From Candidatus Omnitrophota bacterium (GTDB lineage Bacteria; Omnitrophota; Gorgyraeia; Gygaellales; Profunditerraquicolaceae): a DNA stretch of 64,000 nt. This document shows, in pieces, positions 4,994 through 64,000 of the stretch. The stretch spans positions 2,719 to 66,718 of the forward strand of contig JAHKAP010000047.1 of NCBI GenBank assembly GCA_018825985.1, read 5' to 3'. The notes beneath the pieces are model-generated. The model was not told the DNA's origin, made no database searches, and saw nothing but the letters and a program-made list of their open reading frames with translations. Position 1 is the first letter of the stretch. Each line of letters begins with the position of its first letter. The position numbers were made by a program, and so were the translations under genes.

Positions 4994-5683
4994 ATGGCCA
5001 GAAGACCGCGTTTATTTGTATCCGATGTACCCTATCACGTTGTTCAGCGAGGCAATAATAAAATTCCTATTTTTTTAGCCGATCAAGATTACCGCATCTT
5101 TTTGGATACGCTCCAAGAAGCCAAAACCAAACACCCTTGTTTTATTTACAGCTATTGCCTGATGCCTAACCATTTCCATTTACTTATTGAACCTAAAGAA
5201 GATAATAATGTCAGTTTATTAATAAAGTTATTGGGAGCCAAATATGTGCGGTATATCAATAAAAACTATGAACGTTCAGGCACTCTTTGGGAAGGTCGTT
5301 TTAAATGCTCATTGATTGATAAGGAATTATATTTTTTAACCTGTCTTCGTTATATTGAAATGAATCCAGTAAGGGCTGGCATAGTCAATTCTCCAGAACT
5401 ATATCGGTGGTCGAGTTATCGGGTTAGGGCAGTTGGTGAAAGAAGTTTTATTGTAGACATGGATCATTGGTATGATAATCTGGGTTCTAATGCAGAAGAA
5501 CGTCAAAATAAATATCGACAATTCTTCCAAAATTCAATATCTGATTCCGCTTTGCAACTTCTACGAGAAATGACTAATAAGAATGGTATCGTAGGCAGCG
5601 TAAACTTTAAAACGCGAGTAGAACAATTTGTCCACAGAGAGATTGTTATAAGGTCTGCTGGCAGGCCGAAGAACGAAAAATAA
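4994..5683 (+). mobile_element. REP-associated tyrosine transposase (RAYT; IS200/IS605 TnpA-like Y1 HuH transposase)
   Basis: HuH motif (PNHFHLLIE) and catalytic Tyr region (RYIEMNPVRAGIV). Inverted half-REPs flank both ends. Confidence 0.85.
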
Positions 5684-57657: not shown

Positions 57658-57993
57658 GTTTTTAAAAATTTATTTTGTTTTCGGAGATGAGGACTAACCC
57701 AGGCAGCTTATGAAAAGGGCCTGAAGGTTGCTGTTTCTTATCCTGGCCATGGAGCCTTTGATGACCTCTGCGTATTATAGGTATAGGCAGAGGAGGCAAT
57801 TATGGTCAGGCAACTGAATGTTTTTTCTGAATAAGCTGACTAGGGAAAGACACCGCTTTTTTAAATGAACTAAAAATACCACTTGGGTTTAGAAAATGAT
57901 TTTTCCGGTAACGCCATAGCCATGATTGGGTTATAGTCAAATTTTACCGTATCCGGCTATTTGAAAACGTTTTCGCAAATTTTAAAAAAATAC

Positions 57994-58022
57994 TTGACAA
58001 ATATGAAGGTATATGTTAAAAA
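57994..58022 (+). promoter_or_regulatory. Possible promoter (TTGACA-17-TAAAAA) inside the 560-nt leader upstream of the outer-membrane-protein gene
   Basis: Consensus -35 with a weak -10. Followed by strong SD sequences and tiny ORFs. Confidence 0.3.
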
Positions 58023-58218
58023 AGAGAAAATGCAGCAGAGTTCATATACCGTAGAGGCTGATTAACTTAAGGCGAAGGAGGAGGTGAGCAGGCTTAAGAG
58101 TCAGAAGTCAGCTAAAGACGGTAAAAAGTAGATGTGAAAATCACCTGGAGGCTCAAAGCCCCAGTTAGAAATAGAAACGGCATACTTCTAATAAAAATAA
58201 ACAAAGGAGGAAAAAGAA

Positions 58219-59595: not shown

Positions 59596-59616
59596 TAAAG
59601 ATTCAATGTAAGCAAA

Positions 59617-59652
59617 AACCCCTGGGGGAGAAATTCCCCAGGGGTTTTTTGT
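59617..59652 (+). terminator. Rho-independent terminator (CCCCTGGGGGAGAAATTCCCCAGGGGTTTTTTG)
   Basis: 10-bp GC-rich stem followed by a T6 run. Confidence 0.85.
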
Positions 59653-59668
59653 TGCCGAAAGTAATATA

Positions 59669-61228
59669 ATGTTAAATCTCGCTTTCATCTTTCACATGCA
59701 TCAGCCGTATTACAAAAATCTCCTGACTAAGGTTGCGGATGTGCCCTGGGTGCGTTTACATGGCTCTAAGGATTATTTGGATATGGTTTTGATGCTAAAA
59801 AATTATCCCAAGATAAACCTTGTTTTCAATTTGGTTCCTTCTTTAATAGAGCAGACCGAAGATTATCTTAGCGGCAATGTTAAAGATAAATTCCTGGAGC
59901 TTAGCCTTAAGCCGGCATTAGAATTGGCATCTGCAGAAAAAGAGTTCCTATTAAATAATTTTTTCAGCATAAATCCGGATAAGGTTATATCTATTTTTCC
60001 CAGGTATTATCAGCTTTACTTAAAAAAGCAATCCGGGGATGATTTTAGTGTCCAGGATTTTCTGGATTTGCAGGTTTGGTTTAATTTAGCCTGGATTGAT
60101 CCTTATTTCCGCAGAGAAATGCCGGAATTAAAAAAAATAGAAGGGAAGGGGCGGTTTTTCAAGGAAGAAGAAAAAAGGATAGTGTTAGAAAAACAGCTGG
60201 AGATCTTAAAAGGGATTATCCCTGCTTATAAGGAGTATGGACTTAAAGGCCAGATTGAGGTGACAATGAGCCCTTATTATCATCCGATCCTACCTTTGCT
60301 TTCTAATACTAATATCGCTAAAGAAGCCAATAGTAAAACCGTATTGCCCAAGGTTAATTTTTCATATATCCAGGATGCCTTGGCCCAGATTGATGAGTCG
60401 GTAAAATTTTACCGGCAAAGGTTTGGCTTAAAGCTGAATGGGATGTGGCCGTCTGAGGAGGCGGTGAGCGAGCATATCCTGCCTTTGTTTATTAAATCCG
60501 GCATCAACTGGATCGTGGCTGATGAGGGAGTCTTGTTCAGGTCCTTAAAAAGCAAAAAAAGAAATACCCGCCTTTTGTATCAGCCCCATGTATTAAAAAG
60601 AAAAGACGGGTATTTAAATATAGTTTTCCGGGACCGTAATCTTTCAGACCTCATAGGTTTTGTTTATCAGGCCTGGAAAGCGGAAGACGCGGTTAAGGAT
60701 TTTATTACTCACCTGGAAAATATTAACCGATCGCTAATGAATGAGGATATTTTAGTGGTTATAGCTATGGACGGTGAAAATGCCTGGGAGTATTATAAAA
60801 ATGACGGCCATGATTTTCTGGAGTTACTTTATCAGCGTTTGTCCGAATCAGAAAGTATAAAGACCGTTACTATAAGCGATTATTTAAATGATCATCCAGC
60901 AAAACATCAGATCCCTAGGCTTGCCGCGGGTTCCTGGATTTATACTGAATTCGGTAAATGGATCGGCAATCCTTATAAAGTAAAAGCCTGGGAGTGGCTG
61001 GCTCTGGCCAGGAAGGAATTAGAGGCGAGCATTAATTCCGGCGCGAACATTGATTTAGGCCTGGTTTTAAAACAAATGTATATTTTAGAGGGGAGCGACT
61101 GGTTCTGGTGGTTCGGCGAAGATTATCCCGGTTATTTTGATTCTTTGTTTCGTATGCATATGACGAATTTTTATACACTGCTCAAGAAGGAAATTCCTGA
61201 ATATTTAAGTAAGCCTTTAACTCCTTGA
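59669..61228 (+). CDS. GH57-family glycoside hydrolase (α-glucan branching/amylase-like)
   Basis: N-terminal FHMHQPYY and GH57 catalytic regions. 519 aa. Confidence 0.85.
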   Translation: MLNLAFIFHMHQPYYKNLLTKVADVPWVRLHGSKDYLDMVLMLKNYPKINLVFNLVPSLIEQTEDYLSGNVKDKFLELSLKPALELASAEKEFLLNNFFSINPDKVISIFPRYYQLYLKKQSGDDFSVQDFLDLQVWFNLAWIDPYFRREMPELKKIEGKGRFFKEEEKRIVLEKQLEILKGIIPAYKEYGLKGQIEVTMSPYYHPILPLLSNTNIAKEANSKTVLPKVNFSYIQDALAQIDESVKFYRQRFGLKLNGMWPSEEAVSEHILPLFIKSGINWIVADEGVLFRSLKSKKRNTRLLYQPHVLKRKDGYLNIVFRDRNLSDLIGFVYQAWKAEDAVKDFITHLENINRSLMNEDILVVIAMDGENAWEYYKNDGHDFLELLYQRLSESESIKTVTISDYLNDHPAKHQIPRLAAGSWIYTEFGKWIGNPYKVKAWEWLALARKELEASINSGANIDLGLVLKQMYILEGSDWFWWFGEDYPGYFDSLFRMHMTNFYTLLKKEIPEYLSKPLTP

Positions 61229-61244
61229 CAGATAAGGGGTTTGT

Positions 61245-61832
61245 ATGCTATACTTTTACGATATGGAGAAGACCGATATATACGAACATTTGGCCCATAT
61301 TTATTTAGATACTCCCCTTCGTAAGAAAAATCAACTTAAAAATCAGCCGCCGCAGGTATCTAAAAAATATTTATATATCAGCCTGGCTATTATCGCCTGT
61401 CTGGCTATATTGCTATCGATCGCTCTCCAGATCAAACGCAAGCCTTTAACGACCCAGAATTCATCGGTACTCCAGCCTGATGTAATAAAAATAAATTATC
61501 ATTTCAATACCGGTAAGAAAGAAGTATACTCTTTGAACCTGAAGAAAGCGGACCTTTCTAAATTTAAGCAATTGGCATTTTTCTTAAAAAAGGCTAATAA
61601 TCGGGATACTATTTCTATACGGGTTGAGTTCGCTAACGCTTTTAAGGAAAAAGGCGAGATTTACATAAAGGATGTAGCCAAGAATTGGAAATTATACAAA
61701 TTGGACCTGGCTGATTTCAAGGGGATCACTGATTGGACCGAGATTTTGGAATTGTCTTTTATTATCGAGGAATGGAATGCGCAGGATAAGGACGGCGCTG
61801 TCTACATAGAAAGTGTAACTTTATTTAGATAG
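61245..61832 (+). CDS. Hypothetical membrane-anchored protein (single TM helix, ~130-aa extracytoplasmic domain)
   Basis: One TM helix (YISLAIIACLAILLSIAL). No recognisable domain. Tight spacing within the GH57-ParA operon. Confidence 0.4.
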   Translation: MLYFYDMEKTDIYEHLAHIYLDTPLRKKNQLKNQPPQVSKKYLYISLAIIACLAILLSIALQIKRKPLTTQNSSVLQPDVIKINYHFNTGKKEVYSLNLKKADLSKFKQLAFFLKKANNRDTISIRVEFANAFKEKGEIYIKDVAKNWKLYKLDLADFKGITDWTEILELSFIIEEWNAQDKDGAVYIESVTLFR

Positions 61833-61842
61833 GAGGGAGGCA

Positions 61843-62934
61843 ATGCGGATTATATCCATTACTAATCAAAAAGGCGGGTGCGGCAAGACTACCACTGCGG
61901 TAAACCTGGCTGCGTCATTGGCCAATAACGGCAAGAAAGTGTTATTGATAGACCTGGACCCCCAGTCACATGCCACTGCCGGTTTAAACATTGAATCCTC
62001 TTTAAGTATTTATAATGTCCTCTCCAAATTAACCAATAAGAAGGCCGGGTTTGAAGATATCATTCAAAACCTGGGGCCGAATCTGGATATCGCTCCCTCA
62101 AGCATTGTTTTAAGCACGTTAGAACAGGAATTAGCTTATGAGATCGGTAGGGAATCCCGCTTAATCGATACCTTGAGTGCTTTTAAGGGTAATTATGATT
62201 ATTGCTTAATTGATTGCCCTCCGAATCTAGGAATATTAACGGTTAACGCGCTCAGGGCGACTGACGAGATTATCATTCCTGTGGAAGCCAGCCGTTTTTC
62301 CCTGGAAGGCTTAAAGCAGTTGATCAGTATAATTGATCTGGTAAAAGATAGATTAAATCACGTGGTTGAATACCGGGTGCTGGTGGCTAACTTTGATTCC
62401 AGGCTTAGGCATTCTTTCATAATGCTGGAGCGGATCAAGTCGGCTTTCGGATCCAGGATGTTCGGAACTATTATCCATGTTAATGTTAAATTAAAAGAAG
62501 CCCAGAACCAGGGGACCCATATCTTTAAATACGATAAGTATTGCCGGGGCGCCAAAGATTATTACAGTTTATCCAGGGAGATCATTACCCAGGATAAGGC
62601 TACGGGTCATGAAGTTACGATGTCACAGATCAAAGAAAAAATGGCCGAGGCCATAAAAGAAAATTTGCCCGGATTAACCGAAGTGGTGTTTTCTTTGGCT
62701 GCTAAGGATGCCAAAGAGATCTATGTGGTAGGCGATTTTAATGATTGGAAGATCGATGATAACAGCCGGATGCTCGAACATGACGGCACCTGGACCAAAA
62801 GCTTAAGTTTGTTATCCGGAAATTACCGTTACCGTTTTGTAATGGATGGTAAATGGACCGATGACCCCAATAATTCGAACCGGGCCATGAATCCTTATGG
62901 ACAGATGGATTCTTTATTGGAAGTCAAAGGTTAA
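61843..62934 (+). CDS. ParA/Soj-type deviant Walker ATPase fused to a C-terminal CBM48/AMPK-β glycogen-binding domain
   Basis: KGGCGKTT deviant Walker A. ParA fold to about residue 255. The C-terminal ~85 aa match the AMPK-β GBD pattern (VVFSLAAKDAKEIYVVGDFNDW…GTW…LSGNYRYRFVMDGKWTDDPNN). Confidence 0.85.
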   Translation: MRIISITNQKGGCGKTTTAVNLAASLANNGKKVLLIDLDPQSHATAGLNIESSLSIYNVLSKLTNKKAGFEDIIQNLGPNLDIAPSSIVLSTLEQELAYEIGRESRLIDTLSAFKGNYDYCLIDCPPNLGILTVNALRATDEIIIPVEASRFSLEGLKQLISIIDLVKDRLNHVVEYRVLVANFDSRLRHSFIMLERIKSAFGSRMFGTIIHVNVKLKEAQNQGTHIFKYDKYCRGAKDYYSLSREIITQDKATGHEVTMSQIKEKMAEAIKENLPGLTEVVFSLAAKDAKEIYVVGDFNDWKIDDNSRMLEHDGTWTKSLSLLSGNYRYRFVMDGKWTDDPNNSNRAMNPYGQMDSLLEVKG

Positions 62935-62944
62935 GGAGGTAAAA

Positions 62945-63370
62945 ATGCCCCTTAAAAAAAGTAATAAAAAACAGGTAAAGAAGATAGTTAAGAAAAAAAT
63001 TATCAGAAAAAAGCCGGCGAAAAAAGCGATAAAGAAATTATCCAGAAAACCGGTAAAAAAGCCGGCAAATAAAAAAGTAATTAAGAAGAAGGTTTTTAAA
63101 AAGAAATCAGTGCCGGGTTTGGAGAAAGGGAAGATTTTGGGTGAGATAACCCATTATTTTCCTAAAGTCAGAGCTGGCGTTATCAAATTAAAAGCGCCGC
63201 TTAAATCCGGGGAGAAGGTCAGAATTAAGGGCCATACCACTGATTTTAAGCAGGTAATAGTTTCGATGCAGATTGACCGGGTTACTATTCAGGAAGCCAA
63301 AAAGGGAGATGAAATCGGCATTTTAGTCAACTCCCGGGTCCGCAAAAAAGACACCGTCTATAAGGTTTAG
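62945..63370 (+). CDS. Small protein with an extremely Lys-rich disordered N-terminal tail and a C-terminal β-barrel-like domain. Candidate ParA partner/adaptor.
   Basis: Residues 1-60 are KKxxKK repeats. The C-terminus (GKILGEITHYFPKVRAGVIKLKAPLKSGEKVRIKG…GDEIGILV) resembles an EF-Tu domain-2-type barrel. AAGGAGG SD; 10 nt after the ParA stop. Confidence 0.5.
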   Translation: MPLKKSNKKQVKKIVKKKIIRKKPAKKAIKKLSRKPVKKPANKKVIKKKVFKKKSVPGLEKGKILGEITHYFPKVRAGVIKLKAPLKSGEKVRIKGHTTDFKQVIVSMQIDRVTIQEAKKGDEIGILVNSRVRKKDTVYKV

Positions 63371-63408
63371 AACCCCCTATGGGTCACCCTAGGGGTCATC
63401 ACCCTAGG
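63371..63408. repeat. REP type D (GGGTCACCCTAGGGGTCATCACCCTAGGGGTCAGG) flanking the second RAYT
   Basis: Nested palindromes around CCCTAGGG. Shares GGGGTCA with type A. Confidence 0.6.
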
Positions 63409-63430
63409 GGTCAGGTCCCTTTCACGCAAC

Positions 63431-64000
63431 CTAACTATAATCAATAGGTTGCAACAAGTCACTTTGCACTTCTTCGTTCTGATGGGTACAATCTATCTTT
63501 TTTTTAATATTCTCATTGATTATCGTCTTTAAATAAAATTGTTGTCTTATTATAATACTGCTTCCTAATTCAATATAGTAAGGATCTATATCTACTAGTT
63601 TATCTGCTACTCCCAATACATATACCCTATAACTTGAGAATGGGTATGCTTCAGGCTTACTAATCAATCTAGCCCTTACAGGATTAAGCTCGATATACTT
63701 TCCACACTGCAAATAGTAGGCCTCGTCGTCAATAACCTTACTCTTAAACCGCCCTTGCCATAGATGCCCTACGCATTGATGTCGCTTCTTAAAATAGTAA
63801 TAATAGGTAAGGCTGAGCCTTTGTATAAACTTAGCTAAATCGCTATTGTCATCTACTCCTACCATAAAGTGGAAATGATTGGGCATTAGAGCATAATGAT
63901 AAATCTTGACCTTTTCTGTCTGTTTAAATAGCAGCGCCATCTTCCAGAATAACTTATAGTCCTTGGGTCGGAAGAACAGTTTTCGTTTATTATTACCTCG
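63431..64000 (-). mobile_element. Second RAYT/IS200-like Y1 transposase, a different family from the first. Its N-terminus runs past the window end.
   Basis: HuH (MPNHFHFMV) and ELNPVRARLI. The frame stays open upstream of Met63940 (…RGNNKRKLFFRPKDYKLFWK). Confidence 0.8.

Follow-up and report, generated by a model that had tools for sequence, protein, structure and literature searches.

Can a bacterium hold its glycogen to the nucleoid with a ParA-type ATPase that grips the polysaccharide itself? The question is raised by a gene in a 64,000-nucleotide (nt) stretch of DNA from a Candidatus Omnitrophota bacterium (assembly GCA_018825985.1, contig JAHKAP010000047.1, positions 2,719 to 66,718 of the forward strand; hereafter the window), whose product joins a ParA ATPase to a CBM48 carbohydrate-binding module and is referred to here as ParA-CBM48. 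A sequence-only reading had proposed that this protein, together with a GH57 glucan enzyme encoded upstream and a lysine-tailed protein encoded downstream, is a candidate system for positioning glycogen granules. The placing and inheritance of storage granules in bacteria are understood only in part. For granules of polyhydroxybutyrate (PHB) and polyphosphate, the histone-like proteins PhaM, PhaF and AlgP serve as passive tethers to the nucleoid, and a 2025 review of organelle positioning asks whether an ATPase for storage granules, similar to that of carboxysomes, awaits discovery, with glycogen unmentioned (PMC13052382). Among the explanations weighed below, the best is that ParA-CBM48 would be an ATPase bound to the nucleoid, where it tethers glycogen particles or spreads them, a reading that we hold tentatively.

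The gene and the parts of its product, numbered in amino acids (aa), are the following:

61843-62934, + strand: ParA-CBM48 fusion gene (363 aa), from the open reading frame (ORF)
61843..62592, + strand: Soj-type ParA ATPase domain, aa 1-250 (AAA_31, E=1.5e-56)
62593..62697, + strand: linker between ATPase and CBM, aa 251-285, poorly conserved in the alignment of homologues
62698..62934, + strand: AMPK-β-type CBM48 module, aa 286-363, and stop codon (PF16561, PF02922)

The N-terminal domain was matched by the Pfam families AAA_31 (191.6 bits against a cut-off of 27, E=1.5e-56) and CbiA (76.4 bits against 25.4, E=2.4e-21). Its top matches among solved structures were 8RAY, the chromosomal ParA of M. 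xanthus (E=6e-51; 10.1101/2025.03.14.642875), and the Soj proteins of T. thermophilus (1WCV) and H. pylori (6IUB). Far weaker matches were obtained with McdA (6NON/6NOO, E about 5e-15), MinD, ParF and P1 ParA. The Pfam family CBP_BcsQ matched the domain with 43.7 bits, and two NCBIfam equivalogs stayed under their cut-offs, ParA_partition with 108 bits (cut-off 180) and the BcsQ model TIGR03371 with 70 bits (cut-off 157.85).

Conservation was assessed by counting columns in an alignment of 41 diverse homologues with 32-67% identity to the window protein. The deviant Walker A motif KGGCGKTT named in the sequence-only reading was found intact in this Soj-type domain, and KGGCGKT, with the signature lysine, occurred in 41 of the 41 homologues. 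The Walker A′ residues D37 and D39 and the Walker B residue D124 were each invariant as well (41/41). The Walker A cysteine (aa 13), which replaces the valine of the aligned Soj and ParA structures, showed the same invariance across many phyla; as read from this alignment, KGGCGKT is a private signature of the ParA-CBM48 family, and the cysteine could serve redox sensitivity or the specificity of the partner pocket. The two basic positions of Soj are also represented: R187, the equivalent of Soj R189, is arginine or lysine in 38 of 41 homologues, and K216, the equivalent of Soj R218, is lysine or arginine in 30 of 41. In M. xanthus ParA, mutation of the residue at the R218 position (R238) abolishes non-specific DNA binding (10.1101/2025.03.14.642875). 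We infer that ParA-CBM48 would bind nucleoid DNA in an ATP-dependent manner.

The identification of the C-terminus as a CBM48 module of the AMPK-β type, also made in the sequence-only reading, was borne out by two Pfam profiles over cut-off, AMPK1_CBM (PF16561, 43.9 bits, cut-off 26.8) and CBM_48 (PF02922, 26.2 bits, cut-off 22.4). In a phmmer comparison, the C-terminal 80 residues aligned at residue level with the CBM of AMPK-β1 (1Z0N, E=8e-8). The AMPK-β1 residues W100, K126, W133, L146 and N150, which we take from the 1Z0M and 1Z0N structures to be the carbohydrate contacts, correspond to W302, R331, W338, Y352 and D356 of the window protein. Across the alignment, the sugar-stacking tryptophans were retained in 41/41 (W100 position) and 40/41 homologues (W133 position), the K126 position was lysine or arginine in 40/41, and the N150 position was asparagine or aspartate in 39/41; the L146 position was occupied by tyrosine, phenylalanine or leucine. 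On this evidence the module would be expected to bind glycogen. The linker that precedes it is highly variable in length, and some family members reach 430-700 aa and were matched in two separate stretches that lie far apart in the sequence. Because the corresponding columns are conserved in the 41 homologues, the residues that determine ATP turnover, DNA binding and α-glucan binding are all under purifying selection in one polypeptide. Among the top matches to the fusion were also two much larger proteins, P0242 (1812 aa) and P0326 (1436 aa), with 18 and 7 CBM48-like stretches, respectively.

The same architecture was found well beyond the Omnitrophota. When 1.8 billion representative proteins were searched exhaustively, more than 100 clusters (50% identity) were found to align end to end with the fusion at 34-47% identity. 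In a scan of one genome per GTDB species with the patterns NQKGGCGK and L[LV][VI]DxDPQ[GA]H, relatives of ParA-CBM48 were found at no fewer than 595 genome loci, from at least 600 pattern matches, in more than 10 phyla. Gene context was counted in the best 80 of these at least 595 loci, about 55 of them outside Omnitrophota; neighbouring ORFs were called with a program aware of GC content at third codon positions, and the calls in high-GC loci are approximate. The hosts of these 80 loci belong to Omnitrophota, Myxococcota and other "delta-proteobacteria", and Planctomycetota (Phycisphaerae, Pirellulales, Tepidisphaerales), and further to Gemmatimonadales, Zixibacteria, Rokubacteria, Eisenbacteria, Krumholzibacteria, Margulisbacteria, Desulfobacterota and others. 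In public records the proteins are labelled simply "AAA family ATPase" or "chromosome partitioning protein". We read the fusion as an old and selected architecture.

Outside Omnitrophota, the gene next to ParA-CBM48 encodes mostly a degenerate MinD/ParA-like protein; at other loci it encodes a long Planctomycetota protein, an uncharacterised protein of ~190-230 aa or, in Desulfobacterota, a RodZ-like protein with a helix-turn-helix (HTH) domain, a transmembrane (TM) helix and a RodZ_C domain. These downstream proteins share an N-terminal peptide of the form LGRGLxDVSHxFLS (for example RKLGRGLSDVSHIFLSG or KPLGRGLEDVSHLFLSR), which was seen in about half of the 55 loci. When a regular expression for the core of the peptide was run in six frames over 10 kb on either side in the 55 loci, 21 matches fell on the same strand no more than 400 nt downstream and one fell elsewhere. 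With a gapped profile hidden Markov model (HMM), the 18 best matches were all N-termini of downstream genes, six of them outside the training set. None of the partner proteins scored over the cut-off of any curated NCBIfam family. Peptide-bearing partner genes, given with our locus handles, are:

L038, 3339-4277: peptide-bearing partner gene
L050, 11089-11949: peptide-bearing partner gene
L041, 4476-5462: peptide-bearing partner gene
L039, 11088-11789: peptide-bearing partner gene
L072, 1614-2969: peptide-bearing partner gene
L064, 3018-4451: peptide-bearing partner gene

The sequence LGRGL combined with aliphatic residues is a hallmark of the N-terminus with which ParB activates ParA. The ParB motif forms a short helix, in which a central basic residue is accompanied by four large hydrophobic ones, and docks in a hydrophobic pocket by Walker A (10.1101/2025.03.14.642875). 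The presence of a dedicated activator in the family speaks for ParA-CBM48 being a functional ATPase switch with a cycle of its own. An uncharacterised protein of ~190 aa (cluster c19) often follows the peptide-bearing partner.

In the mechanism that we propose, the ATP-bound ATPase would dimerise and bind nucleoid DNA non-specifically, in the manner of Soj and ParA, and the dimer would offer two flexibly linked CBM48 modules able to grip cytoplasmic glycogen particles multivalently. In this way granules would be fastened to the nucleoid, become distributed across it and pass to both daughter cells. The partner peptide would trigger ATP hydrolysis and release, and the tether would turn over, while the cytoplasmic GH57 enzyme encoded upstream would act on the same glucan. 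By analogy, this mechanism would join the nucleoid tethering of granules by PhaM, PhaF and AlgP with an ATP switch of the McdA kind. A wider proposal, which we advance with even more reserve, is that the family represents a widespread, undescribed class of ATP-driven systems for the positioning or partition of glycogen granules, with cargo recognition fused to the ATPase and turnover provided by a dedicated partner family. In this wider proposal the partner would be the LGRGLxDVSHxFLS protein in most phyla and, in Omnitrophota, a membrane protein with a CBM-like domain, a lysine-tailed barrel protein, or both; we infer both which protein is the partner and what the outcome in the cell would be.

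The Omnitrophota candidates for this role are encoded next to the fusion gene in the window, where the neighbouring genes and their relevant parts are as follows, with model confidence given as predicted local distance difference test (pLDDT) values:

59669-61228, + strand: GH57 gene, from the ORF
61245-61832, + strand: membrane-protein gene (195 aa), from the ORF; the family-conserved start is ATG 61263
61263-61340, + strand: predicted cytoplasmic N-terminal helix IYEHLAxIYLD and lysine cluster of the membrane protein; motif invariant in 35 sequences
62945-63370, + strand: small basic-tailed protein gene (141 aa), from the ORF
62945..63124, + strand: disordered lysine-rich N-terminal tail of the small protein, aa 1-60 (predicted pLDDT 45-58)
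63125..63370, + strand: highly conserved β-barrel of the small protein, similar in type to the C-terminal domain of U32 peptidases and to EF-Tu domain 2, aa 61-141 (pLDDT about 95)

The membrane protein had been passed over in the sequence-only reading as a TM hypothetical. Its gene proved to be the most constant neighbour of ParA-CBM48 in this phylum, being directly upstream in 26 of the 26 Omnitrophota loci with a callable upstream gene, down to 51% identity, and its product combines an invariant helix with a CBM11/30-like ectodomain. The family was found only in Omnitrophota among the sequences searched and gave no Pfam match. Its N-terminus is the most conserved part, with the sequence M-x-K-K-D/E-I-Y-E-H-L-A-x-I-Y-L-D followed by a run of lysines. 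In an AlphaFold2 model (mean pLDDT 82), a short N-terminal helix leads into a basic linker without order and a single TM helix, after which comes a confidently predicted β-sandwich (jelly-roll), for which the best Foldseek match was 1V0A (CBM11, E=1.8e-7), with 1WZX, 2C24 (CBM30) and CBM16-like structures also matched. Since the net charge is +5.9 before the TM helix and +1.5 after it in 35/35 members, the protein is predicted to be bitopic with an N-in topology and a periplasmic sandwich. By analogy, the N-terminal helix fits the generic ParA-binding motif, a short amphipathic helix with basic residues, and the membrane protein is a partner candidate at least as good as the small lysine-tailed protein. 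The possibility that IYEHLAxIYLD is a divergent form of LGRGLxDVSHxFLS was considered and rejected: it ranked 458th in the window with a position-specific scoring matrix (PSSM), and the HMM gave no significant match.

In the small protein, the tail carries the repeats KKPAKKA and KKPVKKPANKK and has a composition similar to that of histone H1; its content of lysine plus arginine (55% over 40 aa) is the highest in the window, the runner-up protein reaching 35%. Both the length and the sequence of the tail vary across 15 homologues. The barrel contains the invariant motifs THYFP, KGHT, QID and SRVR and was matched by Foldseek to the C-terminal domain of the U32 "peptidase" 4HE5 (template modelling score 0.90, target-normalised; root-mean-square deviation 1.0 Å), followed by EF-Tu and domain 2 of IF2. 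Judged from this model, the small protein has the look of a nucleic-acid binder. No known ParA partner is similar to it, although ParA partners are notoriously diverse. The suggestion of the sequence-only reading that it is the partner of the ATPase is plausible: the tail is exceptionally basic and the gene is coupled to ParA-CBM48 in one relative (L088), which is offset by the variability of the tail and by the detachment of the gene in another (L033). Activation of the ATPase by the small protein is possible and unproven, because the tail varies and the gene has a PolX/UvrD context in one lineage, yet is coupled to the fusion gene in another. On the basis of position and conservation, the activator in Omnitrophota is probably either the helix of the membrane protein or the basic tail of the small protein.

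The small basic-protein gene was found one to three genes downstream of ParA-CBM48 in 23 Omnitrophota loci. In most Omnitrophota relatives, a gene for a 108-aa membrane protein of the DUF4870/MamF_MmsF type often lies between the two, as in these examples:

L001, 11098-11424: DUF4870/MamF_MmsF-like gene
L004, 11122-11448: DUF4870/MamF_MmsF-like gene
L085, 5623-5952: DUF4870/MamF_MmsF-like gene

This gene is absent from the window, where ParA-CBM48 and the small gene are 10 nt apart. Three loci with altered surroundings were informative. The upstream genes differ in L086, in which GH57, the TM protein, ParA-CBM48, a 109-aa protein and the small protein are all kept, and L089 has an extra gene between GH57 and the TM protein. 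In L088, toxin-antitoxin genes are found upstream and proteasome-like and exopolysaccharide (EPS) export genes downstream, with neither GH57 nor porin; the trio of TM protein, ParA-CBM48 and small protein is intact, and the small gene overlaps the stop codon of ParA-CBM48, so that the two are translationally coupled. At L033, which has a divergent Omnitrophota ParA-CBM48 and a related upstream TM/CBM-like protein, the small protein is encoded between PolX and UvrD on the other strand, 6 kb away. Because the trio survives the replacement of its flanks in L086, L088 and L089, we consider these three genes to be the Omnitrophota core, and GH57 is a frequent lineage-specific accessory of it. The region after the core in L088 (5326-9042) consists of a proteasome-like gene, a MerR gene and an EPS export set (Poly_export, Wzz/GNVR, AAA and a ParA-like gene of the BY-kinase type).

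The product of the GH57 gene was matched by PF03065 (E=6.7e-64) and has the signature regions HMHQP, GQIEV, WPSEEA, DGENAW and EGSDW, with the catalytic Glu/Asp dyad present. Its closest solved structures were those of AaApu from Aquifex aeolicus (9JLQ, 9IHT and 8ZYI; E=5e-84 to 3e-83), a short GH57 amylopullulanase made up of the catalytic domain only, which cleaves α-1,4 and α-1,6 bonds in glycogen, pullulan and starch (PMC12106739); the regions of the window enzyme correspond to those listed for AaApu in that work. A hydropathy check of the N-terminus revealed neither a hydrophobic segment nor a signal peptide, Pfam found no BE_C domain (PF09210), and the NCBIfam model branch_enz_Thcocales scored 29 bits against a cut-off of 1000. 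From the AaApu relationship, the dyad with its five regions and the lack of signal peptide and BE_C, the protein is predicted to be a cytoplasmic glycogen-degrading or debranching enzyme, similar to amylopullulanases. The sequence-only reading had called it a branching/amylase enzyme; a GH57 glucan enzyme it is, close to AaApu, and the branching function was rejected, since the BE_C domain is missing and the nearest characterised relative is an amylopullulanase. As neither GH57 nor ParA-CBM48 has a signal peptide, the glucan that both meet would be cytoplasmic. Omnitrophota metagenome-assembled genomes (MAGs) have been predicted to synthesise and store glycogen (PMC8542988).

All four ORFs of the sequence-only reading were recovered with the positions listed above, all on the + strand, and the spacing of 10-16 nt that it gave agrees with the measured gaps of 16, 10 and 10 nt. 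Each of the three downstream genes is preceded by a strong Shine-Dalgarno sequence (AAGGGG, GGAGGGAGG and AAGGAGG, the last before the small gene); because AAGGAGG precedes ATG 62945, the small gene is taken to start there, and the longer mechanical ORF start at 62897 is ruled out. Short spacing was rejected as evidence for an operon. Same-strand gaps in the window have a median of 16 nt, 34 of 62 are of 20 nt or less, and 64 of the 66 long ORFs are on the + strand; since short gaps are usual here and nearly all genes share one strand, spacing alone is no proof of an operon. The strand bias, together with a GC skew that is positive in all 2-kb bins, is consistent with a long leading-strand gene stretch. 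Two sequence elements bear on the transcription unit:

59614..59651, + strand: intrinsic-terminator-like hairpin, CCCCTGGGG ... CCCCAGGGG, then a T-run (sequence reading and scan)
61225..61254, + strand: near-consensus sigma-70-like site, TG-extended, TTGACA, 18 nt, TATACT (consensus scan, 11/12, pattern match only)

The terminator scan located the inner stem at 59625-59639, followed by the T-run, between an Alginate_exp-type porin gene and GH57, and this hairpin marks the putative 5′ boundary of the unit. The terminator upstream of GH57 and the conservation of the block in relatives with differing flanks are better evidence for a gene unit than spacing, and it is on these that a description of the four genes as co-operonic would rest. 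The sigma-70-like site extends across the stop codon of GH57 and the beginning of the TM gene, with the conserved TM start ATG 61263 just downstream; it may be a putative internal promoter for the three-gene core, and a separate, perhaps leaderless, transcript is possible. Ahead of the porin gene there is an unusually long intergenic region (561 nt, 57658-58218). Past the small gene, palindromic repeats resembling repetitive extragenic palindromes (REP; GGGTCACCCTAGGGGTCA..., 63371-63425) adjoin an IS200-like transposase of the REP-associated tyrosine transposase (RAYT) type (63431-63940, - strand; NCBIfam E=5.9e-18), and in two independent assemblies of this organism the contigs stop ~1.3 kb past the small gene, at this REP/RAYT element. 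The N-terminus of the ORF at 4994-5683 (+ strand), MARRPRLFVSDVPYHVVQRGNN..., resembles by eye a second transposase of the RAYT/IS200 type.

Several observations weigh against the glycogen-tether reading. The sequence-only reading had expected the fusion to be linked to glucan genes, which was the case for the adjacent GH57 in the closer Omnitrophota relatives and hardly extended further. GH57 adjacency was seen only there, at about 16 loci; outside the close Omnitrophota a glycogen enzyme was found within 10 kb at just 3 of ~55 loci, which is little above a rough chance estimate of a few per cent. The three are GH57 branching enzymes with BE_C in L041 and L050, identified with Pfam, and a GH13 GlgB in L072; tblastn with E. 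coli GlgA, GlgB, GlgC, GlgP, GlgX and MalQ, the window GH57 and PGM recovered just the GlgB of L072, and a PGM/GlmM-like gene near the fusion, detected by tblastn, is syntenic within Myxococcota. The most constant Omnitrophota neighbour, the membrane protein, would carry its CBM-like domain in the periplasm, a poor fit to a model of cytoplasmic granules. In the window no LGRGL-type peptide was detected, with no significant match to the TM protein, its c18 relatives or the small protein by either ungapped PSSM or gapped HMM. In a diffusion ratchet the activator is expected on the cargo; here the cargo would be held by the ATPase itself, which may mean tethering rather than active spacing. Finally, all hosts encountered were uncultivated MAGs.

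The rarity of glycogen enzymes in the neighbourhoods outside Omnitrophota would suit an alternative that we regard as unlikely, in which glycogen is a signal or scaffold and not a cargo. Binding of the CBM48 module would sequester or activate the ParA switch and so couple carbon reserves to the cell cycle, and the switch would position or regulate a division, envelope-growth or replication factor through a MinD-like, RodZ-like or membrane-anchored partner, depending on the lineage. No division or replication gene was consistently linked to the fusion and no regulatory output domain is evident, although the partners do bear modules unrelated to glycogen (degenerate MinD-like, or HTH, TM helix and RodZ_C). 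Soj-type ParAs are known as regulators, Soj acting on DnaA and MipZ and PomZ in the placement of the division site. The type of the module is also in keeping with signalling, PF16561 outscoring PF02922, and according to PMC6274970 the AMPK-β module ties a regulator to glycogen. The conserved DNA-binding residues and the variable, flexible linker, on the other hand, suit a tether over a sensor.

The position of the membrane protein leads to a second alternative, less probable still, in which ParA-CBM48 would be an organiser of the cell envelope comparable to BcsQ, a ParA/MinD ATPase for which a role in confining cellulose synthesis to the poles has been proposed (PMC11407121). Docked on the cytoplasmic tail of the TM protein, it would join with that protein in positioning or assembling an apparatus for uptake, export or processing of α-glucan, of which the upstream outer-membrane porin of the Alginate_exp type might be a part. 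The constancy of the TM protein, its N-in topology and its CBM11/30-like ectodomain are in line with this idea, as are the RodZ-like membrane partner in Desulfobacterota and the genes for Poly_export, Wzz and BY-kinase-like proteins downstream in one relative (L088). The porin precedes the block in 18 surveyed loci, all of the Omnitrophota type, and where GH57 is not adjacent in this phylum it lies directly ahead of the membrane-protein gene; in the window, however, the terminator splits it from the block, and it is missing from L086, L088 and L089. The module contains no conserved glycosyltransferase, synthase or transporter, the glucan would be cytoplasmic given the lack of signal peptides in GH57 and ParA-CBM48, and the ATPase is far closer to Soj than to BcsQ (NCBIfam 70 bits against 158).

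That the fusion is simply the chromosome-segregation Soj of its lineage with an accessory C-terminal domain, with ParB encoded elsewhere and the neighbours irrelevant, is improbable. The identity of ParA-CBM48 within Omnitrophota is high (about 70%), as in a housekeeping protein, its best structural relatives are chromosomal ParA/Soj and the DNA-binding arginine positions are conserved. Nevertheless, no ParB-like gene is adjacent, and Pfam detected no ParB-like domain in the window or in the related-locus neighbours examined, with no search made for parS or for Soj/ParB genome-wide. The Walker A KGGCGKT is private to the family (41/41), and in other phyla the fusion has a private downstream partner with a ParB-like peptide of its own. 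The fusion is present in Myxococcota MAGs too; the model species of that phylum has a canonical, essential ParABS system whose ParA is devoid of a CBM.

The least probable alternative, that the fusion is real and the GH57, TM and small genes simply keep synteny as housekeeping genes of a compact genome read almost wholly in one direction, draws on the short gaps normal in the window, on the synteny of the 15-kb region from PPDK onward across close relatives, because of which plain adjacency in these carries little weight, and on the DNA-repair context of the small protein in L033, and is contradicted by the trio staying together with both flanks replaced (L088; L086), by the overlap of the small gene with the ParA stop codon in L088 and by a TM family that is confined to Omnitrophota and stands next to this ParA in every locus examined. 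A role in anti-phage defence was rejected as well: with the PADLOC models ParA-CBM48 showed only short P-loop similarity (E 2e-7 or weaker, ~30 residues), which is P-loop noise, and the other three proteins gave no match.

When ParA-CBM48 is set beside known systems, the likeness to chromosomal ParA/Soj (8RAY, 1WCV, 6IUB) covers the fold, the signature lysine, the Walker A′ and B aspartates, the basic R189/R218 positions and the length and order of the core; it differs in the added linker and CBM48, in the Walker A cysteine in place of valine and in the lack of an adjacent ParB. The partners in other phyla start, as ParB does, with a basic and hydrophobic peptide of the LGRGL type, but they carry it on MinD-like, RodZ-like or unknown modules and not on a CTPase DNA clamp, and the Omnitrophota locus is devoid of it. 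With the McdA-McdB system of carboxysomes, ParA-CBM48 would share the use of a ParA-type ATPase for a metabolic cargo over the nucleoid, and its gene is likewise near cargo-related genes. McdA, however, needs the adaptor McdB, whereas ParA-CBM48 has a fused cargo module, and the proposed cargo is a polysaccharide granule in place of a protein shell. The small putative partner is poorly conserved and partly disordered, as McdB is; the candidates for a basic N-terminal activator with an McdB-like role are the TM-protein helix and the lysine tail of the small protein, neither of which matches the LGRGL-type peptide.

As in the PhaM, PhaF and AlgP systems, a storage granule would be held to the nucleoid, and the KKPAKKA tail of the small protein is histone-like in composition (PMC13052382). 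Those proteins have no ATPase or ParA homology and none of them serves glycogen, whereas here DNA would be bound through an ATP-switched ParA dimer; unlike the single-polypeptide tether of PhaM and PhaF, the folded barrel of the small protein has no known granule-binding role. The module belongs to the same sequence family as the AMPK-β CBM48 (PF16561), keeps its glycogen-contact residues and would similarly anchor a nucleotide-regulated enzyme to glycogen, but it is mounted on a bacterial P-loop positioning ATPase and not on a kinase scaffold, with tyrosine, phenylalanine or leucine at the L146 position. BcsQ resembles ParA-CBM48 as a ParA/MinD ATPase tied to polysaccharide biology and membrane partners, and differs in that it has no CBM; no bcs genes occur in the window, and the ATPase described here is nearer to Soj.

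The statement of the sequence-only reading that this architecture is not a described one agrees with the literature consulted. It is absent from a 2024 review of ParA/MinD ATPases (PMC11407121), a survey of genomes with multiple such ATPases (10.1101/2022.06.09.495121) and PMC13052382, in which no glycogen, carbohydrate or polysaccharide cargo is given except cellulose for BcsQ, and targeted full-text searches, hampered by "para" matching unrelated words, found no description of a ParA with CBM48. The ParA/MinD class itself is known; what would be new is a positioning ATPase of this class to which a cargo-binding module is fused and which comes with a separate partner family.

If the wider proposal is true, ParA-CBM48 would be the first machinery known to segregate a polysaccharide store actively, and it would answer the question of a storage-granule ATPase for the commonest carbon store of bacteria, in more than 10 phyla. 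It would also introduce a new design principle among ParA/MinD ATPases, the motor-like switch itself carrying the cargo-binding part so that no adaptor is needed. The fusion is widespread and would be surprising to specialists, and it makes the question of whether and how bacteria position glycogen granules directly testable.

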